The notes: a model not told the origin generated them from the sequence alone. 64,000 nucleotides of DNA from Lingula anatina (GCA_051362555.1 CM120640.1:59498788-59562787), one strand, 5' to 3'; positions 32,597 to 63,394 are shown, counted from the stretch's first letter. Numbers and translations: made by a program.

Positions 32597-32894
32597 TCTT
32601 ACAAAACGCAAAAACGACCAGAATTCTTTCGTGAAGTATGACGAGCTGGATGAAGAATACACATACGATGAACAGCCGGTGGAGGCATCTGAGCCTGAGA
32701 AGGCTAACTGCTGCACAGCGTGTTGTGACCCTAGGTCTCCCTGCCCATGCGGCTGTGCCAAACGCTACACCATGGCTATCTGCGCGGGCGTTGGATTCAT
32801 GATCTCTTTTGGAATTCGGTGCAATTTTGGGGTAGCTATTATACAGATGACCAACAATGCCACGTGGCATCTCGGAGGAGTTGAGCAGTTTAGA
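32597..32894 (+). CDS. VGLUT: VGLUT exon 2
   Basis: [17 protein letters not shown]...[35 protein letters not shown]...QFR; CAG acceptor, GTAAGT donor. Confidence 0.97.
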
Positions 32895-33009
32895 GTAAGT
32901 ATTTATTTATTTATTTATTTATTTATTTATTTTCAGGTCTGACCGTAATCTTTTCAGTCCTTAACCCTAAACAGTGTAAAAGCATAATGTAGCGCTGTTC
33001 CCCCTTCAT

Positions 33010-33345
33010 CTTTTATCATTCGAAATTGCTGCACATCCTGCTGTACCTCATTGTTCTACCAACATGTTTCTACAGGTACAGTCCTTCTTCCCTGTAGATA
33101 CACAGAAGACTTTTTCCGCTGTGCTCCATGACACCCCCGCAATTGTCTCCCAGCTGTTTTCTTCCTCCCAGTCCACTTTTATTATTAAGTCTTCCTTGAA
33201 CCAAGGAGTTACTGTTGTAACTCCTTGCTTGAACTTAGTGTTAAGCTCTTCCTCCTTTCACCGCCACCACTTTATACTTGACTCCCCCTTCACCATCTTT
33301 CTTGCCTTCACCCTTACATACTGTAGAGCTACTGAGGATTGACAC
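33010..33345 (-). mobile_element. RTE-clade LINE fragment (EN-RT linker) in VGLUT intron 2
   Basis: Minus translation IKWWR*KEEE...WETIAGVSWSTAEKVFCVSTGKK...ETCW*NNEVQQ matches the RTE pattern IKWWKL...KVLGVSSG...ETWWWNEEVQ. Confidence 0.75.
33195..33234. repeat. 26-bp palindrome flanked by 7-bp direct repeat
   Basis: CTTGAAC-CAAGGAGTTAC-TGTT-GTAACTCCTTG-CTTGAAC. Confidence 0.9.
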
Positions 33346-33528
33346 CTAAACAAACTCACAGCCGCACGCATGCAGGTTCACCTTTAATTAATCTTAACCT
33401 AAGAGGCCAAGAATTATGATAACAATTTTCTATCATTTCTTCCTAATACGAAATTTATCTCACTGCCAGACACAATTCAGTTTGTTTTATATTTCAAAAT
33501 CTTACCCAGTAAATTTATTTTTTCATAG

Positions 33529-33647
33529 CCGCCAGAATTTGAGTGGTCTAATACAGTGATCGGGCTGATCGACAGCTCCTTCTTCTGGGGATATATAGTG
33601 ACGCAGATTCCAGGAGGGTACCTTGCTTCAAGGCTACCTGCCAACAG
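33529..33647 (+). CDS. VGLUT: VGLUT exon 3
   Basis: [39 protein letters not shown](R). Confidence 0.97.
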
Positions 33648-33910
33648 GTAAATTTCACGAACTTTACATTAACATTTTAGAATTGTCTATTACTTACGGG
33701 TGGTTTCCGAGCAAATACAAGTATGATTCTGCAATATGATACTGATATTTGCATACAATATTGGGTTTGGAAATATAAGCATGTAATTATACTGCCAACA
33801 AGGCATTAAGTATAAAAGAATGTACGTGATACGTTTTCCACTTCATTTTAATGCAGATAATTCCTACAATTACCCTGTAAATTAATAGCAATAATTTGTC
33901 TTAATTTCAG

Positions 33911-34025
33911 AGTGTTTGGGTTTGCAATAGGGATATCTTCCTTCCTGAACCTGCTCCTCCCAGGTGCTTGTAAGGTCCACTATGGCCTGGTTATCGCTGT
34001 TAGGATTCTACAGGGTCTGGTTGAG
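33911..34025 (+). CDS. VGLUT: VGLUT exon 4
   Basis: [38 protein letters not shown]. Confidence 0.97.
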
Positions 34026-34437
34026 GTGAGTACGATTGAAATCCCTTGAGACCTCTTTACGGCGATCCGAAAACAAAAGGAGACAATCAAGAGGTACTAT
34101 GTGACAGGGATGCTTTTTTTTGTTGTGTGCAATTGATTTTCCTTAACAACAAATGTGATTGTGTTTTTTTTTTTAAACAAAATGATTGGTTTTAGTATAA
34201 CTTTAGTGTAATTATCCTGTTATCGTTATTTTACAGAACTACTGTACATTGTAAATGCAGATAAGTGTGTGAGATTTTGGTAACTAAATCTAAATCTTTC
34301 AAAAGAATGCCGACAGACAAAATAAAAACCCCAGTAAAATACTGAGTTTAAATAAAAGAACTAAATAAAAGAACTTGGGACTAACTTGATCTGCATATTG
34401 GAGGATCGAAGAAATGTGTTTTTATTATGCATTGCAG

Positions 34438-34525
34438 GGTGTCACTTATCCCGCCTGTCACGGTATATGGAGACACTGGGCTCCGCCAATGGAGCGGTCA
34501 AGGCTGGCCACTCTAGCATTTTGTG
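34438..34525 (+). CDS. VGLUT: VGLUT exon 5
   Basis: [29 protein letters not shown](G). Confidence 0.97.
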
Positions 34526-34813
34526 GTAAAAATATAGATTTATTTTTTTAATTTCATTTTTATTTTTGAAAGAATAAAAGTGCATGACCTGCTTTACCCT
34601 CGTTAATGTGATTTTTGAGAGATATTTGCCTGCTTTTTAAGTACATCAAGATAAATAGTTGCCACACGGGACGGTAAATAGGTCTCAAACAAAACATTTT
34701 ATAATGATATGAAAAAAAATGTTCCTGTAGTATCCAACAATTTATATAATTGGTTTGACACTAGGCCTGATAGGTTTATAAAAACATTATCACTCTATAA
34801 ACAATCATTCTAG

Positions 34814-34900
34814 GTTCATATGCGGGCGCCGTGATTAGTATGCCACTGTCAGGGATACTTACAGACTACCTGGGCTGGCCAGCATGTTTTTACTTTTACG
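34814..34900 (+). CDS. VGLUT: VGLUT exon 6
   Basis: [28 protein letters not shown](G). Confidence 0.97.
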
Positions 34901-34998
34901 GTATGCTTCAAACACTAACACCCACGTAGTTAATTTGGATTCGTCGTGCCTCAATTTCCCTTTCCTTATCCAATAACTCTCCCCTCTCCACATTTTAT

Positions 34999-35002
<4 letters not shown>

Positions 35003-35039
<37 letters not shown>
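35003..35039. repeat. (CT)n microsatellite
   Basis: Direct reading. Confidence 0.95.
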
Positions 35040-35042
<3 letters not shown>

Positions 35043-35436
35043 AGCATTTGTGACGTCATATCTACATGTAACTGCACTGAATTAAATTACGGGCAGTACA
35101 AGTACGAGTAGTCAAAATTAGGAGTGCACATTTTTATGTACATTTTTGTTTGTTAATGTTTGTCCAGAGAATGTATCGTAATAGCAACATTGTCTTATTA
35201 TGGAACTTTCTTTTCACGAACAGTTCTATGGCAATTGATGTACCTCGCATTAACATCGAACGTTATATGACGAACATAGTGCATCAATTTACTGATTGAA
35301 ACCTTGAATTGAACTATCGTTTAAATCAAGAGCTTGTCAGACGGTATCTAAGCAAACTGTACTCTGAAAGGAAGCCCTTTAATTGCCAAGAATCATGTGA
35401 CAACGAAAAATGTAATAACAACATTTCAATTTTCAG

Positions 35437-35573
35437 GTGCGTTTGGGCTGATTTGGCTGGTAACATGGATGTTTCTGTCTTTTGAAAAGCCGTCTACTCA
35501 TCCCCGTATTACTAAAGAGGAACGGGATTATATTGAGTCTTCTATAGGCGAGGCAGATACGTTGGTCATTAGG
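35437..35573 (+). CDS. VGLUT: VGLUT exon 7
   Basis: AFGLIWLVTWMFLSFEKPSTHPRITKEERDYIESSIGEADTLVIR. Confidence 0.97.
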
Positions 35574-36824
35574 GTAAGAATTGTTGTGTGGTTGTTAATT
35601 GATATTCTGACATCTAATTTCAAGCGTTGACTTACATTTCTTCGTGTATCACAATGGAATCGAAATGAATTTGAATATTTGTTGCCCATTTCCTCCTAAA
35701 GTAATCATGCAAGTATTTTTCTTCCTTTTATATAATTAAGTTTGAACAAAAGCCTTAAGTCCACCATGTGAAGTGATATGAAGAAATGGTTAATCAATAA
35801 TGTTTTCATCAGCATGTGTTTTCTGAGGCACGATTTGATGCTGAATACGAATTTTTTTCAGAATTAAACAGATTGAACTCTTCTTAGAATGAAAATGATG
35901 AGCCATCAGTAGTAGTTATGTGTGTGTGTATGTGTGTGTGTGTGTGAGAGAGAGAGAAGTAAGCGAGGGGTACCAAAGAAGTATTGTATACTGTAATTTA
36001 AATTTCTTAAGTTCAATAAATAAAAAAAGAATTCTTAGATGTAACTTCAACATGAAAAAGAAAAAGTTTAATTTACCATGCAGTGTGTATCTGGTGTACG
36101 CATTTAGTGTAAATGCAATTTAAAATTCTGATTTCTTATATCTGATAGGGATTTTCCCATTTTTCATTTTGGCAGTGCCGCGATTTTCCTTTCGGTCATT
36201 TTCATGTCTGAGCGCATCTTTATACTCTATACATTGTTCCACAGAAAGAGAATAAAAACGAAAATACAATAAAAGTAGCTTTTATTATTATCATTATTAT
36301 TAGATATGATTATTATTAGGTATTATGTAGATATAAATGAATATGAACATTATATAAAACTGATTAAATGTGAACTCAGCTTAAGAGTAGGAATTTACGA
36401 TCATCTCTTCTAGAATCCACCTATCTCAGATTGCCCCATCCGTCTCTTATATTTGCTTTCAAGATTTGATTTTTCTCCTCACTTAATTTTCTTTTACAAC
36501 ATTTTCCCGTAATGCTGACCGTGTTAATTCATTAGTTATGTAATCTCTTTATTTATATCCTTCTCGAAACTCGTCCTAGCTCCGTCCTCCCATACCAATG
36601 CACCTAGGCCACAAAGGTGTGGCTTGCTACAGCCCACCGGTGTACCGGTGGGTGGATTCCGTGGAACAAGAAATACAAAAACGCAATTTCTGTTAAAAGT
36701 GTACAAATATTTATCATGCAACAAAAGACAATTGTTTTTGACAATTGAAAAAATCCCATATCGTCTTTTCATTTTTTGTTGTAATAGGAAAAAGGATTCA
36801 ATATTTTGATTTTCTCTTTCACAG

Positions 36825-36974
36825 AACGCAAAGACGCCATGGAAAGGCATGTTTACGTCCATGCCTGTTTACGCAATAATCGTTGCCAACTTTGCTCGAA
36901 GCTGGGCATTTTACCTTCTCATCACCAGCCAGCCATCTTATTTCGCGCAAGTACTACATTTTGATATATCAAAG
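36825..36974 (+). CDS. VGLUT: VGLUT exon 8
   Basis: [50 protein letters not shown]. Confidence 0.97.
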
Positions 36975-37374
36975 GTATGTAGAAAATAAACTGCTTTGCC
37001 TTGAAATGTTTTGTAAAATCTAGTGTGTGTCTGTGTGCCCGCGCGCACTCGTGCCCGCGCGTTGCCAAAACCTCTTGATAATTTAGGCACACGTAGGACT
37101 TAATAAAACTTCATAGGCCTGACATAATAAAGTTCGCGTAACGTGCCTTGGGCATAGCAAAGGAAAGAAGTTTATTCGTTCCAATCTAAGCAGTATTATA
37201 CATGTATATAGAATAGGAGAACAGGTAAAGCTTTTAATGGTAATAAGAGTGGACGATATTTCCGAGCGCCAAATGAAACAAAACGTTTCATAACACTTTG
37301 GGATTTCGTATATGTCCGCACATGCCTTATGGTCTTGTTGATGAAGAAGTGTTTTTTAATTTGTATTACTTCAG

Positions 37375-37507
37375 AGCGGCATCCTGTCGGCTCTGCCTCA
37401 CTTGGTGATGACCATCATTGTACCGCTAGGGGGACAGCTGGCTGACTTCTTACGGTCAAGAAAATATCTTAGTACAACAGCTGTCAGGAAAATTTTCAAC
37501 TGCGGAG
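37375..37507 (+). CDS. VGLUT: VGLUT exon 9
   Basis: [44 protein letters not shown](G). Confidence 0.97.
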
Positions 37508-37751
37508 GTAATGCCTAAAGACTCTCGCTATTCCATTCTAGTATCATTTATTGTTCGAGACCTTTGTGAAAAAATGGTTTAAATATTCGAACGGAATGAG
37601 GAAAGACAATTTTTAATTTCGAGGCGGAAAGGCCTGTGCCGAAAATACTTATTTCTCAAGGCTTATATTAAGCAGAAATGACTTGTTATATATGCAACAC
37701 CTGCTAAAATGCAGAGCTCTGTTAAAACAATTTTTGTTTCACATATTTCAG

Positions 37752-37862
37752 GTTTCGGTTTGGAAGGGCTTTTCCTTCTGGGTGTTGGCTATACACGTGA
37801 CCCAACGACAGCGATAATCTGTTTAACTATAGCCGTAGGCTGTAGCGGCTTTGCGATATCAG
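37752..37862 (+). CDS. VGLUT: VGLUT exon 10
   Basis: FGLEGLFLLGVGYTRDPTTAIICLTIAVGCSGFAIS(G). Confidence 0.97.
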
Positions 37863-37981
37863 GTATGCTAAATTCGAATGACTGAATCCGTTCGATTTTT
37901 ATGTTGACATTAGTACGGCTTGTATGTAATTAGTATTTGTCGTCGATTCACATGGTAACTGTATTCTTATATTTTTATAAG

Positions 37982-38109
37982 GTTTCAACATCAATCACCT
38001 TGACATCGCGCCCCGTTATGCTAGTATTCTTATGGGCCTCTCAAATGGAGTGGGGACGTTAGCCGGGATGCTTTGCCCTATTACTGTGGAACTTGTCACC
38101 AAGGACAAG
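37982..38109 (+). CDS. VGLUT: VGLUT exon 11
   Basis: [42 protein letters not shown]; AAG acceptor. Confidence 0.96.
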
Positions 38110-38378
38110 GTAAGAGACTGAGCTGACAATTCATACGTGTAAATTATACATATGCACTAGTACGTCTTGTACCATCGGTCTGTTTGTAGGGAATTTTGTC
38201 TGTTTGTAGAGTGCCTTTAAAATTGATAGGCCTACCTGTGTATGTAGATAATTTTTAATAGTCGTTTATAAGCAATACTATACATTATTATAATTGAACA
38301 AAGTATGTGATACATTGAATGATGTCTAATCTGTACAATTTCAAATTTTAACTCTATTAATTAAAATTCTGTTCTCAG

Positions 38379-38672
38379 ACTGCTAAATCTTGGGAATACG
38401 TGTTCTTGACTGCCAGCTTAGTTCATTTTGCTGGTATAACCTTTTACGGCATATTCGCCTCTGGGGAAAGACAACCGTGGGCTGATCCACCGCATGATGG
38501 TTTCTCTGAGTGGAAGCCAGATATGGATAACCCCATCCAACCGCACAAATCCATGTCGTATGGGACCCTTACCTCTGATGGACCGATATTCCCAACTAAA
38601 GAAGAGTTTGTTCAAGTTGATGCTAAAGACAGATATCTAAATGGTGACGCCGAAGACAGAAGTTTAGAGTGA
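38379..38672 (+). CDS. VGLUT: VGLUT exon 12 (to stop)
   Basis: [38 protein letters not shown]...SYGTL...DRSLE*. Confidence 0.97.
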
Positions 38673-39824: not shown

Positions 39825-40806
39825 ATACCTTATAAGTGATAAACAGTATAAGACAATCAGTCCAAGTACGTTAAAAAAACTTGGACAGTGTTACTCCCAA
39901 AGCAATACTTGAAAAAAAAAACTCAATTTTACATTTACTTGGCTGTAGTGTATTTAAGCTAAAGCGGGGTTTAAAGGGAAGAAGGGCTGCCTTTTTCGTG
40001 TTTAATGAGATCGACTACTGGTGTGAGTGTGATATAGTCACAGCAATTTGTATACGAACCGGTATTTAATTGTTCCGAGTTCTGAAATATTTCTTAACAG
40101 GGCTTGCGCAATCGTAAGTGTAGTGATATCTCAAACTATTCATAAAATATGACATACATGTAAAAGGTTGTCTGTGTTTTTAGGAAATTTACGTTAACCT
40201 ACGCCCACTTAAATGACTAAATGTTTCTTTATTTCAAAAATGAAATGCACTATATGATACCTGAACTTACTATATTGAGACGCTGGTATACCAAGTAGAC
40301 AAATGGCATATTTTCCATAAAATAACATCTATTACATGCCTGATATTGTTGTGGAATTAGCGTCATCTGACTACTTAAGAGTTATGTTAACTACAGTTAA
40401 ATAACATACATCTTTTCTGAAGTCGACAGGACATGCAACGAGTCGTTAATTGGTACAAATGTATGCGGCTGTTACGAGAACAATACAGATATCAAAACAA
40501 ATAGTTGTCTATATCATTATCATTATCTAGAAAGCACACTGTACTTATCTCCATAGAAATCAGTTTGTGCTGATATCTTACGAACGTTTAGATATCATTC
40601 GAACGTTTTAACTTGTTAATCATTAAAGAGAATACTTTCTTACAGTCCGAATAGTATTGACATAAAGCATAAACCTTCACGCAGAATTCGTGAGTTTTTT
40701 CCAGTAGTCTCTTTACGATCTTGATATGTTATGTAACTGGTGTATAATCAGATGTTTAAAATGTGTTGAACACAGTCGATAACTATATATGCTGGTGTAC
40801 ATGTAT

Positions 40807-42722: not shown

Positions 42723-42861
42723 TTAACAATTATGATTCTTCAGATTGCTGTTGAGGTGGGAAACGGCAAAGGCAATTCGTTGGCTCATCTCGCTTTTGCA
42801 GTTTTCGGCAACAGTGGCCTGGCCAATGCAAGCTAGGAACTGAACTCCATGGTCCACGCGA
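42723..42861 (-). CDS. Paralog B exon 4
   Basis: TTTTTCAG acceptor, phase 2, RVDHGVQFLAC...NHNC*. Confidence 0.9.
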
Positions 42862-43431
42862 CTGAAAAACATAAGTGGTTATAATTATGAATGATTCGAT
42901 GACGTCATCAAATAATTTGACAGGTCTCGTTTTCAGGCAATGATAGTGCCTAATATACATGCACAGATAAACTGCATTGGACACAATGTATCGTTGTTTG
43001 TGGGGAAATGTGAACATACAACTGCAGCAAAGTTTCTACCATATCATAGCAGGTCATCGGCCATACGTAACAAGTTCTAAAAAAATGCAGCCGCTCTTTC
43101 ACTCCGTTTACAACGGACTTGCGACCACTTTGAAGACGATTTTTGGACTATACTCTGTCATCTGAACACGTAGCAGAAACTCTTGCAGTACTCTTGGCTA
43201 TCAATGGCAGATTTATATTTTTATCTCATTGCCAATAAGATAAAGTGAGTTTCGTATTAATTTTTATTTCCGTTTGGCATTAATAAAAGTGACCTTAATG
43301 ATCAAATATCAATCAACCTATATATTGTGTTTGTCAAGTCAATTAATGCATTCATATTCCACGAGATATGGAGGAGATATAAATGGGACTTGCTAGTAAG
43401 TTGGAATTGCTTATTTAGTGTAAAAGCGATA

Positions 43432-43670
43432 AAGCCACGATAGCAGAGAACGACTGAGACTTGTGATACATGTAGTTACCAAATTTTCGTAATCTTGGTA
43501 GTTGCGTTAAGGTCGCAAACAGTGTGTAAAAGGAATTTAAAAGGCACATGCCGATTTGGTGTAAAACTATAGGCGACGAAAGCAGAGAACGGCTAGACTT
43601 GTGAGAGTTACCAAAATTTCGTGATCGTCCCAGTCTAACAAAGGTAGCAATCCGATGTAAACAGGATATT
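43432..43670. repeat. Degenerate tandem duplication (~140-bp period) in paralog B intron 3
   Basis: AGCAGAGAACG.CT.AGACTTGTGA...GTTACCAAA.TTTCGT.ATC appears at ~43442 and ~43581. Confidence 0.7.
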
Positions 43671-43709
43671 TGGAAGTAAGAAAGTCGTTTTTGTATATTT
43701 AGGGCCTAC

Positions 43710-43788
43710 CTTTCACAGGACTCTGATGCCATCTTTCCAATCTTTTTGTAACATGCCGTATACGTCCCTATTATCTGGTCCATGCAGC
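43710..43788 (-). CDS. Paralog B exon 3
   Basis: 79 bp, GCMDQIIGTYTACYKKIGKMASESCE(S); CAG acceptor, AG/GTAGGC donor. Confidence 0.9.
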
Positions 43789-43840
43789 CTGAAGTGAATG
43801 TTTTAATTTTGAATGTAAATAAAATCACAGGTCATTATCA

Positions 43841-44025
43841 CAGGCCATTAGCCAGGGTAGCCAGGGGGGGGGGGGGGGTCGGGGGGTTCGAAAGAACTGC
43901 CCCTTTCGTCAGGAAAAGGTCCATTTTGGGTAAAATTTTATCTAGGTGCACATAAGTTTCTTTGTAAAAGGTCCACTTTTTCAGAAAAAAAAAAAACCCT
44001 TTTGAATTTGCTGGCTACGCGCCTG
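43841..44025. mobile_element. MITE (CAGGCC..TAGCC TIR family), copy 1
   Basis: TIRs CAGGCCATTAGCC / GGCTACGCGCCTG, flanked by TTATCA on both sides; reverse-complement homolog of 48891-49058. Confidence 0.85.
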
Positions 44026-44210
44026 TTATCATAAGTGATATATTTTACTAATATTGATACTGGTCACCTTCCCCCCCCCCCCCCCACACACACACACACA
44101 CACACGCACAAACACATGCACACGCACACACGCGCATTTTCTTGGATTAGAATTGAAATTAAAACAAAAACATCACTACTTGTTTGTACAATTATTTCCC
44201 CCGATTTTAC

Positions 44211-44300
44211 CTTCAGACTTCTTGCTTATCAAATTTTCGGAGTCCATCAGCTCCTCGAGAACACGTGTCAAAAGAGACACCTCATCTGAGACTGGTGATC
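44211..44300 (-). CDS. Paralog B exon 2 (pro region)
   Basis: 90 bp, phase 1-1, SPVSDEVSLLTRVLEELMDSENLISKKSE. Confidence 0.9.
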
Positions 44301-45189
44301 CTGAAATAAGAATGAGGTGTACATTAAAATCTGAGAGAAGCTAATTAATGTCTATTAAATTGCACTGGAAACCTCAACCAAAAGGATTTTATCACGACAT
44401 ACAAGCATGCAGACAGTAGGGCCCATATCCCAGAGTAAAGCACGTCCTTGGCTTCAGGTTTTAAATGTCAAGTTGCAATGTTGCTTTACAACTGTTAGAA
44501 GTGAAGGTAATAAATTTCAGATGGTAACAGAGAGATAATGGTAGGCAGTAATGCAATGCTTAATGGTATTTATGTACAAAACTTTAAAGTGTGCATTCGC
44601 GCCTCGAGTTAAAACATGAATAAAAGGAAAGAATAATCAAAAAGGAAGTGGCCACAGTGTGGCCTTTGTCTGCCAAGATACATGTATGCTGTCTGAAATT
44701 TTCTTCCCTGCTGATTCTAAAATGCTTTTCTATAGATGTTATTGCCTTTAGAGATCACTCAGTGTTTCCTCAACGAACTGATTTAGTGGACCAACTTATC
44801 CTCTTTATATGGATACTAACATTTTACACCTCAACATTGTGTTTTTCACAATGCTGAACACATCTAGTTACTTTCCCCCTCATTATGTAACACTCCCGAG
44901 CTGGCATGAATGGCTGTTTAGATAGCATGTTGAAAGTTCAGGAACTGCAGTGAATAGCAGCTGAAATCAGTGGTGACTATTGGTTTACTTGCATAGTTTG
45001 AATGTTTTTGTTTAGTACGGTTGCACCATGGTGACCAAGAAGTGACACTGCACCCTGCCTCCTAACCCGTTCATCTCTTTCGACACACCTAAAAGGTTGA
45101 GATTATACTGTATACGTCTAGACTTGTAGACGCTATATTATACAACAATGCCACTCATAAGTACAAATGTAAGTACATATACTCATAAC

Positions 45190-45385
45190 AATATAGTATG
45201 TGGCGCAGTAGTAAAAAGAACAAACTCGTCGCACTTCAGGTAACTCTTCATTCTAATGGATATCACTGCATTGTGATTCATCCACATTAATTTTCCCTGT
45301 AGCACTTCCTTCCCTTAAATACAAGTTGTTGGTACCACTTATATGACCCATAGCTCACGTAACTGTGACCATACACAACTTTCAG
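45190..45385 (-). pseudogene. Dead partial duplicate of paralog B exon 1 plus intron 1 start
   Basis: Aligns to ~45940-46195; start codon absent and donor changed (plus strand CCACTTATA vs CCACTTACC). Confidence 0.75.
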
Positions 45386-45988
45386 ACCCCGGTTTACGCT
45401 ATATATATTATAACAAAGCCACCTTGTCTCCCCGTAGTGCTAGACCAATTTCATTTAGCCAGATCGTTTCCATGACTTCACAACCAAACCCAATATGGAG
45501 GTGCAAATGAGGTTACAGGCAACCTCTTAAAATATTTAGTGCACAGATTGCTAACTACGTTTGATAATTTTAGTGTCCCAAATAAAGAAGTTTGTATCAA
45601 AGATTCACCCTCCTGGAACCATGAAAAATAAAAAAAAATTATTCATCGCATAATCCCAAAAAAGAAACATACATGTACGTTACTGTCATAAATGCAAAAC
45701 ATCCAGCTGGGGAAACATTTTACTCACTTTGAAAACTCAATTATCACTAAATTTGTTCTTTAATTTATCAGACAGTACATCGCCTCCTCCGCCCTTATAC
45801 TATACATTATTTCATTATTTGAATCAGTTTCATATAAACAGAATTTTCTTTCAGTTCCCAACCAAGTACTCATTACTTCCTTTAGTCGAAACAGTTTTCA
45901 ATTTTCCACACTTTTTTCATCAGTGTAGTATTATTGGCAGCATAGTATATGGTGCAGTAGTAAAAACAACAAACTCATTTGCACCTTA

Positions 45989-46034
45989 CACGTAACTAAG
46001 ATCTAATATCCGTTTATTAGATCTTAGCACGTAA
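45989..46034. repeat. 32-bp palindrome flanked by 7-bp direct repeat
   Basis: CACGTAA-CTAAGATCTAATA-TCCGTT-TATTAGATCTTAG-CACGTAA; absent from the paralogous segment near 45240. Confidence 0.9.
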
Positions 46035-46159
46035 GTAGCTCATCTTGTAAATGTAAATCGCTGCATTGTGATTCAAGATCAGGGAATATATATATATTCA
46101 CTTACATTAATTTTCCCTGAAGCACTTACTCTAAAATACAAGTTGTTGGCGCCACTTAC

Positions 46160-46211
46160 CTAAAACTGACGTAACTGCGACCACACACAACAAAATCAGG
46201 TATTTTGCCAT
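46160..46211 (-). CDS. Paralog B exon 1 (signal peptide)
   Basis: 52 bp, MAKYLILLCVVAVTSVL(G), donor G/GTAAGT. Confidence 0.9.
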
Positions 46212-46285
46212 TTTCCTTTAAATGTGGTTTCTCAACTGTGCCCTTGGTGCTACTCAGTTTAGAAGGTTAGCTGCAAATACCCGTC

Positions 46286-46321
46286 GTAACTGGTTTAAGA
46301 ATTCGGGCGTTTCCTTTATAT
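46286..46321 (-). promoter_or_regulatory. Candidate TATA box and initiator of paralog B
   Basis: TATAAAG at 46320-46314 with CCAGTT about 30 bp downstream, ~105 bp before ATG. Confidence 0.55.
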
Positions 46322-48697
46322 CATGTATATGGTCCTGCTCTCTATAGAAGGTGATCCTTTCCTTCGTGGGAAGAGGGTGACCATAACAAAGATCGCTTGC
46401 TTTTGGTGATGTAGGGGTGTTCCATAATTGTTGTTAGGCAATGACCTGGAACTTTCTTACGATGACCATCGTCTTATATTGTTAAGGGCTAGGACTCCTT
46501 AACTCAAAATACGTCTGACTAAAATAACAAATGTAAAATGTTATATAATATACACTGCTTTGGTTTGCAAATGATCACGTATCACAGTTTTAATAGTGCT
46601 TTTCAACCAGACACATATCTTACATGACTTATGGCACAAAAAATACAGATTATCGGTAACATTCACCCCGTCAAATCTGATGTTCCACAAAAATTAAATC
46701 AGCAGCCAAAATTTAAACCAATGCTGTGTATTTGACAAAGCACAGTTTTTAAACATGTTGTGACAGAAAACAATGACACCGCGATTGTGTAAATATTCTA
46801 ATTGTCTATGAGTTTCCATATTTGATTCTAAAATATTGTGCCGTAGTGCAGATTCTATGCATTAGACCCAAATGAGATTTTGGTGGAAAAAATGCTACTT
46901 CGCTGGGAGCAAGTTCTACATTTGTACATCGCTGAATAGGTCATTCCTCTTTCCCTCTTTCTGATCTCGTTGCAGAATTAAAAGAAACTGATTGGAAAGT
47001 ATCAGCTTCGTTTGTTCAAGATATGAAAGATTACTTTATTATTTTACCTTTTGCACAAAATCACTTTAATAAAGTTGGATTTTGAATACAAGAAAACTTC
47101 TTTAGCACAGACGTTCCTGTACAGTCTTGCTTATACAGACTTCATTAAAACAATAATTAAAAAAGCACAGTAAAAAAAAATCTTCATTTAGAAATAATTT
47201 TTATCTCCCCTCAGAGCCATACTTATTCTGAAACTCCTCTGATAACTATTTGACCACGACTGTGTGATCATGGGAAATTCGAATAAAGCCACGCCCGGCC
47301 TGGCCCATCTAGAGCAAATCAAACCTCAAAATATGTTAAATACAGTCGATAAATGTGCATCCTGCTATGCATTTTTTAATCTCATTTCAATTCTCAGTTG
47401 GCATAGAGAATGTTAAAGTTAAATCTCCAGATTAAGCACCACTAGCCGAGTTTCTGCATGATGAATGATGAAAATGAGCTCAACGCAAAAATGTGTCAGA
47501 ACTCCCCTCTTACAGGTACAATCGAATGAAAGGAAAATAATTAAGTTCTTTTTTTCTTTTAACAAATCACAAATTTGACTCACAAGTCTACGACATTAAT
47601 TCTGATTTTCTTTATTTTAATACTTCTTTGCATCAACACAACCTTACGTTATAGGGTATCATGGAATTTAATGGTCCCCGAGGCCAACCTCCACTCTGAA
47701 ATAGATGGCACTGATACACAGCGGGTTAAGGGTAGTTTTTAAGGAGTGTACCCACTCCCACTCCTTTTGCCTTTAATCGTTTGTCGCTATTATTTTTCAT
47801 TTTCATTTACTTATTCTATTTATTAATTATTTCATACAGTCATTCTAACCGACACAAGGTAAAACACGTGTAGGCCTACTATCTTCCTTTATCCCTCTGA
47901 AGCCTTCCTTACGTCTCCTCTAGTAAAATCCCGCATTCCTACCCCTTCTTCTTTCTCGTTACAGTAAAATCCCGAACCTTCTGGAAATAAGGATGGCCTG
48001 TTACAGAAATACGTGACTTGATTACTTCATTATAGAACAGGACGACAGTAATGGAAACTACTAGAAATGCGACAGTTGAACCAGTTTTGAATGTCTTCTC
48101 TGAACGCAATCCCCTCACCTCAGCATGCTGACATGCGTGGATTCTTATTCTGGCACAGAGATCGAATTGACGAGGCATTATCGATATTTTCAAACGTTGT
48201 GCATATTTGTTTTTGGTTTATCTAATTTTGTTTCTAAATTTTTCATTTTTCTCTGAAAAACATACTCTAGTGGCAGCACTTCACTTAAAAATTCATTGTA
48301 GGTCAATTTTCATATTTATCAAGCATGTAGGCCTACTATTATTCACTAGCCTACTTATGCATAGCCTATGCATAACCACCTTTCTGTCTTAAAACTTCTG
48401 TTTTTTTTTTAACCAGACTTAGGTTAAGTACCGCAATATTTCAATTTTATAATGAAGTGGTCAATAATGGGGAAGGAACCTTCCAATACACTAAACCTAA
48501 TTATGATCAATATTTATTCATACGAAGTCATACATACACACAATGGACAATAGAAGTGTCACCCCCTGAATCAGAGTAATCAAGTAGGTACATCTTGAGT
48601 AGTTATAATGCCTGGTCTACTTATAATGTGACTAATGAGTATAAAACTGCTGTACCATGGAATTGTATTGTTGGTTTGTGAAATTTGATGTTAATAA

Positions 48698-48865
48698 CAG
48701 TGGCGGATCCAGAGATATTTTCTGACAGTCTTCCAAATTATCTTTGTTGCGCCATCCCCCATTTTTTGACCGTCTTCTGACAGAAAAAAAAGATATCCGT
48801 CAATGTAAACTTGAAAATCTGACCGTCTTCCGGAAGACCCAGAAGACGGCCTAAATCCGCCCCTG
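48698..48865. mobile_element. MITE (CAGTGGCGGAT TIR family)
   Basis: CAGTGGCGGATCCAG / CTAAATCCGCCCCTG termini, AATAA on both flanks. Confidence 0.8.
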
Positions 48866-48890
48866 AATAAAATGATACCAGGAGCATATC

Positions 48891-49058
48891 CAGGCCCGTA
48901 GCCAGCAATTTCAAAAGGGGGGTTCGTTTTTTGAAAAAGTGGACCCTTTTCCATAAAAACTTCATGTACCTAGATCAAATTTTACCCAGAGTGGACCTTT
49001 TCCCAGCAAAAGGGGCGGTTCTTTCGAACCCCCGACCCCCCCCCCGGCTACGGGCCTG
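48891..49058. mobile_element. MITE (CAGGCCCGTAGCC TIR family), copy 2
   Basis: Perfect 13-bp TIR CAGGCCCGTAGCC / GGCTACGGGCCTG, ATATC on both flanks. Confidence 0.88.
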
Positions 49059-49322
49059 ATATCATTTAAACAACTCATAGAAATAAAATATATAATACAA
49101 AGATCAGCAAAAACAAATTGAACTGATAAAAATAAGATAGTACATGCATACAGTGTCAAATGATTTTCGTGTCCTGTAAGTTAACTCCCCTTAAGATTCA
49201 TCCTTTAATACTAGCATAATAAGCTGTTCCAGCCACTGTTCTTAAGCACAATCATAACTGTTACCATCAAGCATGAGATAGAAGCATAAGATACACAATC
49301 TGGTTTGCTTATTATAAATCAT

Positions 49323-49476
49323 CTACCGGCGTAGGCAACCATGGCTTTGCAGATTTCTGTTAAATACATTCATGGAAGCGACCTCTTTTTGGCCCATTTC
49401 AGCTTTGCAGCTCTCAGAAACACTGCCCTTTGCCATATAAATGCAGTGCATGAATTGAACGTAATGGTCAACTCGG
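49323..49476 (-). CDS. Paralog A exon 4
   Basis: TTTCAG acceptor, phase 2, RVDHYVQFMHC...SHGCLRR*. Confidence 0.9.
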
Positions 49477-49738
49477 CTGAAAGAAAAAGCTTTGGCATTA
49501 ACTTGAATTTTTTATTGATTGCAGTTAAATTGTATTTTATTGATTGCACACACAAGCACATTGAATAAATGGATTGCGACAGTATTAGCAGTTATCACAG
49601 TAGTTTTACATATTTATCACAATAACATACATGTATACAGATCGCAGTTACGCGATGAGGCACGTGTGTGGTTTATCCAATTTAGATACATGACTGTCAC
49701 CGATCAAACTGGAGAAAACCTGTAATTTATATACCTAC

Positions 49739-49817
49739 CTGACGCAGTCTGTTGATTTCATCTTAGGGACCTGACGGTAACATCCCGCGTACTTAACTAT
49801 GATCTCATCATTGCAGC
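49739..49817 (-). CDS. Paralog A exon 3
   Basis: 79 bp, GCNDEIIVKYAGCYRQVPKMKSTDCV(S); TAG acceptor, AG/GTAGGT donor. Confidence 0.9.
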
Positions 49818-50057
49818 CTAAACAAATCATTTCAAACATTATTTTAATGTGTCTCCTCATAAGTCATCTCCTCATAAACAGGTTATCAAAATGTCTAAGG
49901 TAAGGGATGTATAATGTTAATTGTATAAATCTTTTTGTAATAAAAGACACGCACCGCTCCTAACATAAGCAAAAAACATAATATTCCAAGCTTACGACTG
50001 ACAACAGTTGTGCTCTGTAGTAGCAAGTAACTTGTCAAATACAACCCATTATTTTAC

Positions 50058-50144
50058 CTGATTTCTTGCTTATTATTTTTTCGGAGTCCATTAGTTCTCT
50101 GAGAAAAAGTTTCAATAGGGACACATCGTCTTCGGTCTGCAATC
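50058..50144 (-). CDS. Paralog A exon 2 (pro region)
   Basis: 87 bp, phase 1-1, LQTEDDVSLLKLFLRELMDSEKIISKKS. Confidence 0.9.
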
Positions 50145-51260
50145 CTGAAATATAAATGTGAACATGTTCTAATGGAACCGAGAAGATCGAGTTACTGTAG
50201 TTTTGAACGAGTCCAACAAAAATCTGAACCACAAACAGTGAGTCATAGATGAACATATGCTACGAACTACAAACTACGAACTACGGGAACCCGAAATAAA
50301 ATAGCGGGTGGAAGTTAATTCTCAAGGAGAAAAAATACAATCTGAGTGTAAGAGTTCATAATACCGAAGTACTACAAAAGAAAAAAAAACCAGACTTGCA
50401 TCATTTCTCTAAAATCAGTGCAGTCTTGAGGGCAGTGGAGGCGGTAAGGGGCACGGACAATAACATGTCCCCCACCATTTTTGAACTACAGCTGTACTAG
50501 TATCTGATCCTAGATGAAAAACTGTAGTTTGTTCAAAGACCCGAGACAATGATTTGCTTGGGCTTATTAGAGCATTAGTTCTTGCTGCCATTGCTCAAGA
50601 CATCAAGATTTTAAAGCACTTCGCCATCACTGTTAGTTGATATAGTATTTGAAAATAGAAAACTAAAAATATTCCAAGTGGTAACAGCCTAATCAAAAAT
50701 ATGTTCAAGGGTTTAGAGGCTGTAATCAGGCTCTGCTGGCTTTCGCAGGTGATCACACATAGAACTCGAAGGTAATCCCAACTCACTCTGGTGATATGAG
50801 CCAATAAGAGGTAATACTGCATTGACCTGCTTTAAGACGTGCGTTTTCCTTCCAACTTCTTTTCTTTCTATTGTGAGCAAAGAATAAATAACGATGCATA
50901 CAGACGAGACTCAATACGATACGCATAGAAGAAAATGTTTGAGTAAGGAGTTGTCCAAATAAAAACAGGTTGTATATTTCATATGAAAAGGAGCTGACAG
51001 CCTAAGGTGGCATTCCTGTAGATGCTGAGTTTTACATTGTCAATAAAAACATATAAGACAGCTTTAGAATGTTTATAATGCTCATTCAAACGTCTACGCG
51101 CTCAAATAATGCTCTTTATTACATGCGTCTTCCCTTAACTTATTATGTTTTTAAAATCTTCCTGTCCTGGTGCTTCGAATGCCGTTTATATAACCAGTCT
51201 CTGATGTCTACTCGGCTTCATGCCCGTTTATTCTGGCTGCGAGTGCCACCCCCTCAACCT

Positions 51261-51261
<1 letters not shown>

Positions 51262-51293
<32 letters not shown>
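51262..51293. repeat. (CA)n microsatellite
   Basis: Direct reading. Confidence 0.95.
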
Positions 51294-51296
<3 letters not shown>

Positions 51297-51623
51297 CCAA
51301 TGTGTATAACCACGATGATTCGCGATGTCTTGGTGACTTTTTCACTTTCATAGTCTCGGCCTTTCTCTGCTTTAGGCGCCTATTCGCGTTTTAACGATTG
51401 AAGTATCAAATAAAATAAAAAATGTCAAATCGCTAACGCCCTGTAATGCTCACAAGTGAAACTACCCTCAAGAGTTAGGCGAACAAATATTACCCCATGC
51501 CAAGGAGATCGTAGAGATCGCTTGGACAATACCTTGCAAGACCGTGCGATTAATGGTCATGAATCAAATATCCAGTCGTATCAATCCTGAAATGACGCAT
51601 CACGATTTGTTTGTGTCACTTAC

Positions 51624-51675
51624 CTAAAGATGCTGAAACTACCAACATACACAGAAAAATCAAATATCTTGCCAT
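51624..51675 (-). CDS. Paralog A exon 1 (signal peptide)
   Basis: 52 bp, MARYLIFLCMLVVSASL(G), donor G/GTAAGT. Confidence 0.9.
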
Positions 51676-51713: not shown

Positions 51714-51781
51714 TTTATATACGGAATAAGGTGTCTATCTGGTGAAGCCTGTTCACTACCCGGTAGGTGCTGCTTTATATA
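51714..51781 (-). promoter_or_regulatory. Two candidate TATA boxes of paralog A
   Basis: TATATAAA at 51721-51714 and 51781-51774; the distal one lies at about the same distance from ATG as the paralog B TATA box. Confidence 0.5.
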
Positions 51782-55028: not shown

Positions 55029-57727
55029 CTACGTTTCTGATATTTTCAAGACCTTGTATACATATGAAACGACTAAGTGCAAATTGTTCTTTGAAAATAG
55101 ATCCCCTAAGGACGTATATACCAGTTCAGGGTAGGCTGAACGCATCGCTGATGTGAGCTCGCATTTGCTTATAACATGTAGCTCTGTTTGCATTTCACCA
55201 CACTTGCAGACACGTTCGTTCCTCTCTTTACGACACCAACGACCCGTTTCGATTGCCAATCTATGAGAACTTAGCCTAAACCTAGTAGTAGCTATACGTA
55301 GATATTCCGGGATATCGAAGCGGTTTGCGTACATATCCCACACTTCCAGATTGGGGTTCATTTCTAAATAAGTCGTTGCTTTTGTTTGATTCGAATTTTT
55401 AAGTTGATCTTTTAGGTTTTCAATGTCCAAGTAAATATGATCGGATGTTGCTAACACTTTCTGATAGTACGTTGACGCTTTTGTCTTACACCCCATTCTC
55501 ATAGATTAGATCGACCTACATTGGATCGACCTAACTCCCTGGGGGTTCACGCTAAATAGCTGTCAGCCGGGCGGACACGAAAGTTAATTACCCCTTAAAG
55601 CTTGTAGTAGGCGGGGACGGACACTTAAGGGGGATTATCTGACAGTAATCTAGTGAGACTCCCCGCGGTGATAGATCGATCTAAAAGTTGTGAGAACAGA
55701 GCCTTAGCATCTGCACAAGTTTTCCACATGAATATGAAAGGGTCGTCCTCCATGTCTTTGCGTTCTTGCAACAATTTCTCCAGAAAATTACGTTGAGCGT
55801 CCATTACGCGTGCCTTTAGTGTGGGCAAGCCCAATTCGAGGAGACAGGTGTCGTTTCTCGTTGATGCCCGTACACCTAATAACGCTTTTACACTGTTTAT
55901 GTACATGGGGTTTGCCGTATCTATACTGTTTCCTATCCATGACTCGCATGCGTAAAGAATGGATGCAAACAATGCGGCGTCGAGCACTTTCCTCTTTATG
56001 CTGAAGGGGAAATCAACGTTCTTTGTAACAAATGCTGTATATTTCATAACATGACACTGCTTCATGTCCATTTGTTCCCTTACTGCTGTATCACTTTTTC
56101 CATCTTGAGTGAACATTGCTCCGAGATAACAATACTTGTCACAGGTCTTAATTGTTAGACCTTCCACCTCGAGGTCCTCCTTATCTTCAACGGTACCGTT
56201 TATAACCATTATATTGGTTTTGCTCTGATTCATCTCCATCCCTGACTGGGCACAGAATTGTTTTAGTATTTTTACTTTTTCTATGCATGCTTTTCGGGAC
56301 GTTGCTAAGATAACAGTGTCATCCATTAACAATAAACAGTGCAACCACATAAGAAAACCGTCATCTTGGCACTTTCTTAACTCCCTCACTAGGTCATTGA
56401 TATACAGAGTGAATAAAAAGCAGCTCGTTGGAGATCCTTGCCGCACACCTAACGAAGCTGATATATTGGCTGCACCTAGAGCCATGCTAGTGTTACTATA
56501 GATTGCGGCTAATATTTTTACCATAGAGTATCCACAACCGTAGCGGATCAAATTGCGGATGAGCGCCCCACGTGGGACTTTGTCGTATGCTTTAACAAAA
56601 TCCACATAAACTATATACAGTTTTTCTTTTTTGGACATAGCATAATCAATAGCCAAGCGTAGAGTTACTATATGCTCTAGGCACCCTCTTCCCTTCTGAG
56701 AGCCCGCCTGCTCTCTTTCGGGTTTAAACCATCTTTCTAAACGTTTGCATAGTATAACATCAAACAGTTTAGAAAATGTGTCCATAACTGCAATGCCCCT
56801 GTAATTTCCAGTGTCCGTTCTAGGTCCTTTCTTATATAGTATAACTAAGCGGGACAACGCCCATTTCGCTGGGATCAATGTGGTGCTCAAAATCATAGAA
56901 AATGTAAGTACTAGAAAAGTTATCCACCGCTGTGGCAAGGTCTTAAGTATTCCGGGGGGGATGCCGGAGGGTCCTCCACTTTTATTCGGTTGAACTGCTT
57001 TAATGGCGTCCCGTACCTCATTCTCAGTAATTTGGTCATCAGTCATTGGTATATAAGGGCATTCCCCAGGGAGCGGCGTGAAAACGGGGTCAGCGTCGTT
57101 AGGTGAAAGCAGCTTTTCAAAATGCTCCTTGAAATCCTCGTCCGTCGGTCGCTTTTTTGCTGCGTCGTTTAATTCTAGCGTCCCACTCCAACCGATCGCC
57201 TGCCATATCTTGCAATGATCATTCATGCTGTGAAGCGCTTCCCAGCGGTTTGTTATTGGTCGTTGTTGCTCAATTTGGTTTGATTGGTGAATCTTTGCAC
57301 GATCTAGACTTGATCTCATAATGCGGTCAGTTTCGTAGAAAACCTGGTCCAAGTTATCATATGGTAGATTCGGCGGTTCGGCGTTTCCCAGAATCTCCTT
57401 AAATAAGGTAGAATCAATATCAGTCCATTTAACTTGCCGATTACTACATGATGATGGGTGTGTGTCCCTTGTCGGTGTATGATCATCTAGCTGTGATACG
57501 CGGTACAGTAGAGAGTTCAGGATGTCTGCGGTTGATGAGAGCTATTCCTTAAAAAAAGTAATGCCTACTGGGGCGTGGTTCGATGGTAAATCCACGCTGT
57601 CATGAATTATCATGTTAGATGTTGCGGCTACGAGGCTCGGGGAGACAAAGCAATGGTCCAATTCTGAGACCCATCGATCCCTTTGTCTAAATGTACATTG
57701 TACTGTAGCCTTGACACTAATTGACAA
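55029..57727 (-). pseudogene. LINE ORF2 (truncated endonuclease, reverse transcriptase, C-terminal Cys/His domain), disrupted
   Basis: Three ORF pieces; break after the EN tail and an insertion at 55489-55703. Confidence 0.9.
55489..55703. mobile_element. 215-bp MITE nested in LINE ORF2 (TTA TSD, Harbinger-like)
   Basis: TTA on both sides (55486-88, 55704-06); imperfect ~30-bp TIRs (..TTCTCA...TTAGATCGA.CTA); removing 218 bp restores the frame as CADAK-TKASTYY. Confidence 0.78.
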
Positions 57728-60605: not shown

Positions 60606-61152
60606 GTAAGCTAATATTCAACACCTATTTTTTTATTACTCTTTTCTTTAACTATTTTTTAATCCTTATAATTTGAGAATTATTGTTTACATGCAGGAGA
60701 TATGTTCCAGTGGAGACCAAATGTGATATTTTGTGTAGAACATACATATTCATTCTATGGAAAACAGAGTATAAATTTATTGCTTGGTTTCTTTAAAAAA
60801 TTAGAAATTCTGTTTTTTTAGTATTTATTTTTTAAATATAAAACCCCATGTATTAGTATGTAGTAATCAGAGAGTCATCATGTTGATAATTTTAAAATAT
60901 GATAACAGTTGATACCTGAGGCAGCATCTGTATATCAGTCACTTAGAAAGATTACAACCATCTCATTTTACCAGCTTTCCTGGTATCCTCTAACCAGACT
61001 CTTCTGCCATTAGTAATCAGCATTATGCCTACTTGGTATGATTTTGGTATTTTGTGATCGTGCCATACTGTCACGTTGGATAGAGTCAGCACATGGAGAA
61101 AGAAATCACTTCATTGTAAAATACCTGTGACCAAGTTAATGGCTTCTTCCAG

Positions 61153-61339
61153 GTTGCTATCTCACATAAATGACCCCAATCTGGATTTTGATATGCCCAG
61201 GGAGTTTGTGTTGTACTTGTGTCCAACAGGTGACCTGGCCACAGATCTTGACCATTACTGGAAAAACACATTAGCACAGTGTGGATGGAATGGGGCACAC
61301 AACTTTTTACCACACATTACACTCTGTCCATTCTTCAAG
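61153..61339 (+). CDS. UBASH3B: UBASH3 coding exon 3
   Basis: LLSHINDPNLDFDMPREFVLYLCPTG...AHNFLPHITLCPFFK. Confidence 0.96.
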
Positions 61340-62701
61340 GTGAGTGTGTTTAAAGAATTGCTCTTATTAGCATGTCAGATATAATGAAAAAAATAGAAAA
61401 ATATAAATTGAAAAGGGACTGTATACATGCAGAATTGTATCCTGAAGATAGTTATGATTTTTCTTGGAATCCTCATATTTTCTAACTTGTCAATACAATT
61501 TGCTCAGTCCTAATCAAAGATGTACATGTAATAATTATGGCAGCATTTTGGAAATAAAAAAATATTTTCTACAATTTTTATTGTTGGGGTGGCTTTCACA
61601 ATAATTCCACCATCATGGGCCTCTTTGTTATGTACCAGTTGGGGATAAAATTGAACTTTTATTGGTGAAAACTAAATTATGCATTACATAAAATGCTTCC
61701 CATTCTGGAGTCAAACTAAAGAAAAAGAGACCCCTTAATAAATTTGAGACATTGTTTTATTTCCCATTTTTCTAACAACTGCAGATAATAACTCTAATTT
61801 ATTATATATCCAGTATGTATAATTACACTGAAACTAATATTGCTGTGTCCTTCCAGTTTGTAAGCTTGTTTTATTGCCAAAAAGCACATCACTGTCTCCA
61901 GGCTGCTTGGGAAAAATTGAAGAACTATTCCATTTGGTCTTTGTTCTGTTTCTACTTTTAAAATATATTAGGTTCAGTACAGAATTTTTTTCTCATCTCA
62001 GACAACTATGTCCATATTTTTTTATATCTGTTGTTCTTTGCCACTGTTTTCTCTAGGTACCTGTGTATACTGTTACAGTGTGAAGATATTATAATTAGTA
62101 GTAGTGTTATTCGGAACATCTGAGAATAGGGCATTTATGTTCCATATGGGTTCTTTTTATATCAGGTTTACATGGATGACACAAGCAGAGACTTGTAAAA
62201 AATACATCATTGTTAAATTATGTAAAATGTTTCTAAAATTAATTAGTTCTTGGAAGATTTTTGTGTGGTTTAGTGTTAAAGATCATCTGGTCTTCAGATC
62301 AGCAGTAGTGTCATTTCTTTCAAAAACCACTTGATGAACTTATGATATGGTCAATCAAGTCTTGAAATTTCTTTGGTCAATATCTTAGGACCCATACAGA
62401 ATGAGTAAGGTCGCAATAGGGAGTGTGCACTAAATCCATTGGCGACTCTTGCTGCATGCCATCCGATTTTAATGTTAAAACAGAGGAGCAGGCCTCCTCC
62501 TGGCTTGGAGTAGAATCCAGAGAAACAGGTGATTATAGGAGTATGTTGGAAGTGTGTTAGTCTGTTAATCTGATTGCATTCAGCGAGAGTCCTCATGGGG
62601 TTAGTGCACTTTAGATAATGAGACCTAACTCATTCAGAATGGCCCCTTAGGCCCCTTGGCCCCACAGAGATCCGTCATTGTGCTTCTTATTTTTTCCACA
62701 G

Positions 62702-62888
62702 GCAAAAGATTCTCAAGTGCCTCACATCCTGTGTGCAGTAGAAAAACAAAGGGAGAAAAGGTATCCAACACGGGTTGATCTCAATCACTTCACTGCTCCA
62801 AACTTCATAGGGTTGTTTGTGGGGGAGAAGTGTGCAGCAGTTCTCAGGAATCTCGTGGCAGAATTTGCAGAAGATGTTCACAAATCAG
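62702..62888 (+). CDS. UBASH3B: UBASH3 coding exon 4
   Basis: AKDSQVPHIL...NFIGLFV...FAEDVHKS(G). Confidence 0.95.
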
Positions 62889-63224: not shown

Positions 63225-63394
63225 GTGTTCAGATGGAGGCCCACCAAAAACAGCTTCACGTCACCCTTGCTTACCAGTATTCCCCTGAACAACATGCACT
63301 CCTGGAGAAACTGTCCAAGAGCATCAAACTGGACACGCCCACTCGCTGGGACCTCCGACTTTATTCCAGGGATGCTAGAGCTCATGGGACAGAG
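63225..63394 (+). CDS. UBASH3B: UBASH3 coding exon 5
   Basis: VQMEAHQKQLHVTLAYQY...LYSRDARAHGTE. Confidence 0.95.

Follow-up and report, generated by a model that had tools for sequence, protein, structure and literature searches.

The Er and En pheromones of Euplotes and the attractin of Aplysia are small, secreted, helical proteins with three disulfides that are made as precursors and vary between populations or species; they measure about 40-60 residues, and their cysteine spacing and pairing are other than those of the two proteins considered here. Peptides of the CHH/ITP and eclosion-hormone families arise from precursors composed of a signal peptide, a pro segment and a dibasic site, and their helical products of 60-80 residues have close cysteine pairs (C-x2/3-C) and a 1-5, 2-4, 3-6 disulfide pairing. 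The hallmark of saposin-like proteins is C-x2-C near the start and C-x5-C near the end of a domain of four to five helices. Lineage-restricted secreted cysteine-rich proteins are, moreover, common in invertebrate genomes. In this report we analyse two tandem paralogues, genes A and B, in a stretch of 64,000 nucleotides (nt) from the brachiopod Lingula anatina (GCA_051362555.1 CM120640.1:59498788-59562787; the whole stretch is called the window), which encode what is, on structure prediction, an undescribed secreted domain of three helices and six cysteines, a new family of familiar precursor design.

RAMPs are described as having a single transmembrane helix and a short cytoplasmic tail (PMC9832379, PMC6283891) and ectodomains that form three-helix bundles (PMC9832379). 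Amphioxus RAMP-like proteins retain four cysteines and the membrane helix and are 15-39% similar to human RAMPs, and further RAMP-like proteins may evade homology searches (PMC6283891); RAMPs are reported as absent from protostomes and known only from chordates (PMC12638048). Calcitonin and DH31 receptors are present in Lingula (PMC8557429). Among the secreted proteins of this animal, the alanine-rich shell-matrix proteins are lineage-specific, are encoded by tandem genes and have a signal peptide and a predicted three-helix bundle (PMC4595640).

Genes A and B are both intact, lie on the minus strand and have four exons each, with sizes of 52/87/79/154 nt in A (a product of 123 residues) and 52/90/79/139 nt in B (119 residues). 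All six introns are GT-AG, in phases 1,1,2, and the joined frames contain no internal stop, exactly as an initial annotation, made by a model from the sequence alone, had laid them out; RNA reads, which it had proposed as a check, span 6/6 junctions. It had further described the genes as hidden, and this does not hold: both already exist as RefSeq models of L. anatina, LOC106179950 for A (XP_013419232.1) and LOC106179951 for B (XP_013419233.1/4.1), each labelled "uncharacterized", and they are undescribed rather than hidden. The window B protein is identical to RefSeq, and window A differs at 3/123 residues. The two proteins share 61 of 124 aligned columns, and their exons correspond module for module, one module per exon, with a KK pair closing exon 2 in both. 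The TATA boxes that the initial annotation had noted are borne out as mutually alignable TATAAA words 104 nt (A) and 109 nt (B) 5' of the ATG. A second TATA-like word in gene A, at 51721, is probably not the main box because RNA reads cover 51706. Candidate poly(A) signals are ATTAAA at 49209 for A and AATAAA at 42506 for B. A profile built from the two sequences recovers 8/8 exons in the window (E 1.6e-28 to 2.8e-6), where 0/127 shuffled windows reach 3e-6, the profile having been made from these same proteins; it finds no third intact copy in the 64,000 nt. The RNA evidence comes from eight of nine listed runs (X1-X5, X7-X9), chosen by species label and read to 6-30% each, which belong to studies P1 (X1-X3), P2 (X4, X5) and P3 (X7-X9) with coded tissue and condition labels. 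The parts of the two genes are as follows.

51774..51781, minus strand: gene A TATA box (TATATAAA), aligning with the gene B TATA box
51624..51675, minus strand: gene A exon 1, whose coding part gives the predicted signal peptide (residues 1-18); hydropathy peak 3.5, junction reads in X7 and X9
50058..50144, minus strand: gene A exon 2, pro segment, a predicted amphipathic acidic helix ending ISKKS; gene model, RNA reads, structure model
49739..49817, minus strand: gene A exon 3, which encodes predicted helix 1, the loop and Cys1-3; gene model, RNA reads, structure model
49323..49476, minus strand: gene A exon 4, whose coding part gives predicted helices 2-3 with Cys4-6, then the terminal RR and the stop; gene model, reads, structure model
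46315..46320, minus strand: gene B TATA box (TATAAA), aligning with the gene A TATA box
46160..46211, minus strand: gene B exon 1, whose coding part gives the predicted signal peptide; a 6-nt in-frame insertion in a divergent allele
44211..44300, minus strand: gene B exon 2, pro segment ending ISKKSE; gene model, RNA reads
43710..43788, minus strand: gene B exon 3, which encodes predicted helix 1, the loop and Cys1-3; the most variable exon between populations
42723..42861, minus strand: gene B exon 4, whose coding part gives predicted helices 2-3 with Cys4-6; the stop codon follows Cys6 immediately
44821..44860, minus strand: alternative exon joined to gene B exon 2; GT donor at 44820, 5' end undefined

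Both genes are transcribed. In gene A, junctions 1, 2 and 3 are spanned in X7/X9 by 9/4, 13/6 and 10/2 reads. In gene B, junction 3 is spanned in six of the eight runs (X1, X2, X3, X7, X8 and X9, with 14, 17, 7, 9, 31 and 4 reads), junction 2 in five (X2, X3, X7, X8 and X9, with 14, 11, 5, 28 and 9) and junction 1 in three (X7, X8 and X9, with 15, 27 and 4), there through a divergent allele; none of the junctions listed for X1-X3, beyond which there are 34 and 41 more, is junction 1 of B. The stranded runs X1-X3 place their first mates on the plus strand, as minus-strand RNA predicts, and gene B reads continue past the stop into the 3' untranslated region (UTR). The paralogues are regulated differently, because B is present in P1 with zero depth on A exons 2-4, both are present in P3, and P2 holds next to nothing for either; in some samples B is thus transcribed independently of A. 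By a crude depth conversion both stand at roughly 2-23 reads per kb per million, so that neither transcript is dominant.

In X2 and in X3, 6 reads join the alternative exon to exon 2 of gene B, where junction 2 itself has 14 and 11. Because every candidate acceptor (8/8 within 120 nt) leads to an early stop if joined to exon 1, this exon is either a poison exon or an alternative first exon from which the signal peptide is missing. Two intervals near the genes, 43870-44025 and 48565-49060, are short dispersed repeats, one pair of them inverted (139 nt, 77%), and attract RNA reads that stem from other loci, in numbers of hundreds to thousands; the high depth there was rejected as A/B expression on account of this dispersed-repeat origin.

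Searches beyond the window returned little except the genes themselves. A gene A exon 4 query found a single match among 5.8 billion protein clusters, LOC106179950; a profile including the gene B exons additionally recovered LOC106179951, and each protein is a one-member cluster. At E 0.001, phmmer against 1.84 billion representative proteins gave three matches: A, B and one repetitive open reading frame. The last (P0003, E 2.7e-4) was rejected as a homologue, being an unnamed repetitive frame of 1629 residues whose score sums six stretches. Nothing in Pfam, NCBIfam, PDB sequences or the ESM Atlas stood above the bars for either protein; in the Atlas there was no usable match for exon 4, the whole protein led to unnamed clusters at 0.75-0.76, and the structure matches all fell below the bar. 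Matches to DUF1638 (E 0.05-0.11, 13-14 bits where the cut-off is 27) and to a LIM kinase (E 0.31) were set aside as chance. Pfam models of defensin, macin and saposin gave no match, toxin families gave none in Pfam or PDB sequences, and no Pfam family of known lophotrochozoan neuropeptides or hormones exceeded its cut-off. The expectation of the initial annotation that no characterised family would match was upheld in the 1.84 billion representatives, Pfam, NCBIfam and PDB sequences, and homology and fold searches of the kind it had suggested (here phmmer, Pfam, Foldseek and VIA-align) produced no confident match to a characterised family. No description of such a family and no mention of the accessions was found in the literature searched, with supplementary sequences given only as pictures and one incomplete file lying outside it; in the parts of the PMC6425005 supplement available, one file being incomplete, the A/B motifs gave only chance matches, in other phyla. 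Judged from these searches, the family appears to be an orphan within the libraries covered. Its specificity to Lingula is unproven, because other brachiopods and phoronids, whose data are mostly transcriptomes, may be thin in those libraries.

The two precursors share one layout. The predicted signal peptides have a hydropathy peak of 3.5-3.6 at residues 5-13 and small residues at 16 and 18, and their frame is maintained in the divergent allele. There follows a pro segment and, at residues 44-45, at the end of exon 2, the KK pair; A additionally ends in RR. The mature cysteine spacing is 10-11-12-11-23 in A and 10-11-12-9-23 in B, and the stop codon falls 0-3 residues past Cys6, in agreement with the RefSeq models. 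Sequence and hydropathy support the succession of signal peptide, pro region, dibasic site and six-cysteine domain put forward by the initial annotation, and its cysteine framework stands. Its acidic pro region ending ISKKS keeps the ending, and the acidity is only mild (net charge -1 and -3); the portion predicted as helix is amphipathic and acidic (hydrophobic moment 0.46-0.54, net -3/-4). The SRVDH.VQF core that it had regarded as conserved is not invariant in its VQF part: RefSeq A has I for V, and the Q is changed in the divergent allele of both genes.

The domain after KK, modelled from A and B aligned, is confidently predicted (predicted local distance difference test, pLDDT, 89.8; predicted template-modelling score 0.73; five models at 85-90) to form three helices, at 3-17, 26-46 and 49-72, which agrees with the helical domain initially proposed. 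Cys1 and Cys2 lie in helix 1, Cys3 and Cys4 in helix 2, and Cys5 and Cys6 at opposite ends of helix 3. For an up-down-up bundle with intrachain bonds, C1-C5, C2-C4 and C3-C6 would be the disulfides by elimination, because this is the sole set free of same-helix and opposite-end pairs; the pairs are deduced from predicted helix boundaries, not from model coordinates. The three-disulfide secreted effector of the initial annotation is supported in its layout and predicted fold; cleavage at KK and the disulfides themselves are inferred rather than shown, which is less than it had claimed. That the products contain a secreted, disulfide-locked three-helix domain is, on these models, quite probable.

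As to function, the explanation we favour, tentatively and with slightly less than even confidence, is that A and B yield processed secreted ligands for a cell-surface receptor, of the pheromone, hormone or gamete-recognition type. Led by its signal peptide, the chain would enter the secretory pathway, where the amphipathic acidic pro helix may sort the protein to secretory granules or keep the domain inactive. A convertase would then cut after KK and free a three-helix bundle of 74-78 residues, and a carboxypeptidase would trim the terminal RR of A. Once free, the bundle, held by its disulfides, would be stable in seawater or coelomic fluid, and it would bind its receptor through a variable polar surface.

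The same precursor could instead keep its pro segment, as a four-helix secreted protein of about 100 residues (cytokine-like, a carrier or an extracellular-matrix accessory) in which KK is a loop. We consider this unlikely. KK is frequently left uncut, the pro segment is amphipathic and identical at 16/27 positions between A and B, and both full-length models show it as a helix; those models are, however, poor (pLDDT 67 for one and 55.7 for the other, made from the whole precursor as a single sequence), whereas the three-helix part is confidently predicted without the pro segment, and KK sits at the exon 2/3 boundary in both genes. Absence from shell tables also counts against such an uncut protein. 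In the PMC13425148 shell proteome supplement the three A/B accessions have 0 matches (a control accession appears 10 times), and in Supplementary Table 26 of PMC4595640 0/14 novel shell proteins fit A or B by length and composition; a shell-matrix role is disfavoured because of these two results.

Charge and surface bear on two defensive alternatives to the receptor ligand. The mature domain has a net charge of +4 in A (isoelectric point 8.8) and 0 in B, and its helices have hydrophobic moments of 0.17-0.33, net charges of -1 to +1 and no Trp, a weakly amphipathic, near-neutral character that argues for a polar, non-lytic surface. The strong positive charge and amphipathic surface of cationic membrane-active antimicrobial peptides were not found. 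An innate-immune effector, that is, an antimicrobial or pattern-binding protein made in prepro form, kept in granules, inhibited by the pro helix and released on challenge, would share the signal, acidic pro and dibasic layout, the tandem duplication, the charge of mature A and a pro segment better conserved than the mature part. Yet mature B, the more widely expressed copy, is uncharged, the helices are weakly amphipathic and lack Trp, the defensin, macin and saposin models are silent, and only two copies were found in the window and the protein libraries searched; we regard an immune role as rather unlikely. A defensive toxin or deterrent in mucus seems very doubtful. The layout resembles that of many animal toxin precursors, and the related nemerteans possess helical disulfide-bonded toxins, but Lingula feeds on suspended particles and is not known to have a venom apparatus, expression is modest, the surface is not lytic, and no toxin family matched in Pfam or PDB sequences. 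Of the classes that the initial annotation had named for this layout, nothing favours a toxin or an antimicrobial peptide over a signalling ligand: the net charges are +4 and 0, the hydrophobic moment is low and expression is modest.

Variation between populations is relevant to the ligand and to the immune effector alike. All P3 reads carry fixed differences from the window in A, in B and in the B 3' UTR, where 11/146 sites (about 7.5%) differ in every X7-X9 read, and X1-X3 stay close to the window. The P3 animals, known here through RNA, point to a strongly divergent population or cryptic species because these differences are fixed in both genes and in the B 3' UTR. Among the variants listed, 40 of 290 and 40 of 261, the B mature domain has at least 10 replacement and at least 3 silent changes between window and P3 (177 and 45 sites), altering at least 9/74 residues and no cysteine; the B pro part has 1 replacement and 1 silent change, with the signal peptide longer by 2 residues in frame, and the A mature part, at lower depth than B, has 3 replacement and 0 silent changes. 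The ratio of replacement to silent change per site (pN/pS) in the B mature domain is about 0.85 among these variants (P 0.017 under an omega of 0.2). Between A and B, nonsynonymous divergence (dN) is 0.28 in the signal peptide, 0.27 in the pro segment and 0.42 in the mature part, with a ratio to synonymous divergence (dN/dS) of about 0.35 overall. The cysteine scaffold thus appears from these comparisons to be maintained as the surface changes, by positive or relaxed selection.

Several points weigh against a processed receptor ligand. The 10:3 ratio fits relaxed selection or neutrality (P 0.74 at an omega of 1) and reaches P 0.07 under the paralogue value of 0.29; the P3 alleles are known from RNA reads alone, with counts from partial lists. 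Rapid change around fixed cysteines is equally typical of immune effectors. A simple height estimate puts Cys2 and Cys4 about 9 Å apart. Convertases cut KK less readily than KR or RR, and the pro helix may therefore remain on the domain; the precursor and domain models differ in length and in alignment depth (1 against 2 sequences), so the gap in pLDDT is no proof of cleavage. Finally, the A/B motifs were not found in the brachiopod neuropeptide supplement of PMC8557429.

Fold comparison brings in one further alternative. With the mature model, Foldseek gave no match at E 0.001 either in PDB, where 310 appear at E 10, or in BFVD. VIA-align against 48161 chains gave 0 at Z 8 and 280 at Z 5; its top matches, of which the best has Z 7.3, are generic bundles such as designed proteins and MIT domains. 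The best 50 fold matches listed contain no saposin, pheromone or CHH. Searches with the low-confidence full-length model were uninformative; the saposin-like Ac-SLP-1 (Z 4.6) appeared with that model. At VIA-align rank 23 stands the human RAMP2 ectodomain (Z 6.2, root-mean-square deviation 3.5, 70/78 residues aligned, 7% identity), its score tied with unrelated bundles; it is the sole extracellular disulfide-bonded bundle recognised among the best 50 matches of that search, and a framework that the initial annotation had not considered in its comparisons. In RAMP1 the spacing of the six cysteines is 12/16/14/9/21, with 1-5, 2-4, 3-6 as the pairing. Only 0.2-0.3% of random six-cysteine frameworks lie as near this spacing as the A/B domain does, under a null that ignores bundle geometry and the number of frameworks compared. 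No RAMP sequence match appeared in PDB sequences or in Pfam, which we take to include a RAMP model, at E up to 10, filters removing most matches above about 0.1.

The proteins might then be soluble, very distant relatives of RAMP ectodomains that bind a class B G-protein-coupled receptor (GPCR) ectodomain or its peptide ligand and tune signalling, which we consider highly improbable. The three-helix RAMP ectodomains (PMC9832379), the receptors present in Lingula (PMC8557429) and the elusiveness of RAMP-like proteins (PMC6283891) accord with it, as do the RAMP2 alignment, the spacing and the pairing. On the other side, Z 6.2 is shared by dozens of unrelated bundles, identity is 7%, RAMPs are missing from the best 50 matches of Foldseek and of a second structural search, bundle geometry favours this pairing anyway, and RAMPs are reported absent from protostomes (PMC12638048). 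When A and B were inspected for a transmembrane helix and short cytoplasmic tail, the chain was found to stop 0-3 residues after Cys6. A and B are not RAMPs, because they lack the membrane helix and a profile match; shared ancestry with RAMP is possible on the predicted fold. The fuller proposal, that they are soluble, proteolytically released RAMP-ectodomain relatives, the first in protostomes, acting as secreted modulators of class B (calcitonin/DH31-type) GPCRs and pointing to a secreted RAMP ancestor, is a long shot.

The pair is flanked by two plus-strand genes, one for a vesicular glutamate transporter and one UBASH3B-like, and a LINE reverse transcriptase lies in the interval between them. 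These neighbours carry no functional hint. The remaining features of the window are these.

32570-38670, plus strand: vesicular glutamate transporter (SLC17) gene; best PDB match of an exon VGLUT2, E 5e-12
61100-64000, plus strand: SH3-exon gene, best match Sts-1/UBASH3B, E 3e-6; continues beyond the window end
55029-57541, minus strand: element of long interspersed (LINE) type; 638-residue reverse transcriptase frame, PF00078, E 1e-29
45193..45379, minus strand: decayed, incomplete duplicate of gene B exon 1 plus the first part of intron 1, inside intron 1; E 2.6e-7

The SLC17 gene has low reads, mainly in X8. The LINE has a separate downstream frame of 158 residues, with unrelated-looking sequence between the frames. 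The decayed copy at 45193-45379 matches 45942-46191 in duplicate pieces 78-91% identical. An apparent inverted exon-3 relic at 40401-40553 on the plus strand (E 0.039) was rejected: 1/20 and 2/127 shuffles match it, and it has no DNA-level support and no donor site; the likeness is probably chance or a very old relic. At 24169-25180 there is a GC-richer stretch of overlapping open frames, the longest of 265 residues, with no Pfam match; it is perhaps a repeat.

Brachiopod chemical signalling and defence are almost undescribed, and A and B offer a verified, expressed and directly testable orphan pair. Should the differences between populations mirror receptor or gamete recognition, the pair would have a bearing on cryptic speciation in Lingula; should the likeness to RAMPs be due to homology, it would inform the open question of RAMP origin. 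For the present, the pair is another lineage-restricted family of secreted cysteine-rich proteins, of a class common in invertebrates. The Lingula alanine-rich shell-matrix proteins differ in their poly-alanine and GYGY motifs (PMC4595640). The Euplotes pheromones and attractin are a functional analogy only, with no match in PDB sequences and no place among the best 50 structural matches. From CHH/ITP and eclosion hormone the A/B proteins differ in having no C-x2/3-C pairs and no Pfam match. With saposin-like proteins they share a size of about 75 residues, six cysteines and an all-helical fold; their spacing of 10-11-12-9/11-23 and three helices set them apart, as do the want of a Pfam match and of any saposin in the top 50 of the confident model. 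RAMPs have a transmembrane helix and cytoplasmic tail where A and B have a pro segment and KK, and identity is 7% with no profile match; the predicted A/B domain resembles the RAMP extracellular domain in being an extracellular three-helix bundle of similar size, with six cysteines at similar spacing and a pairing that would be that of RAMP1/3.

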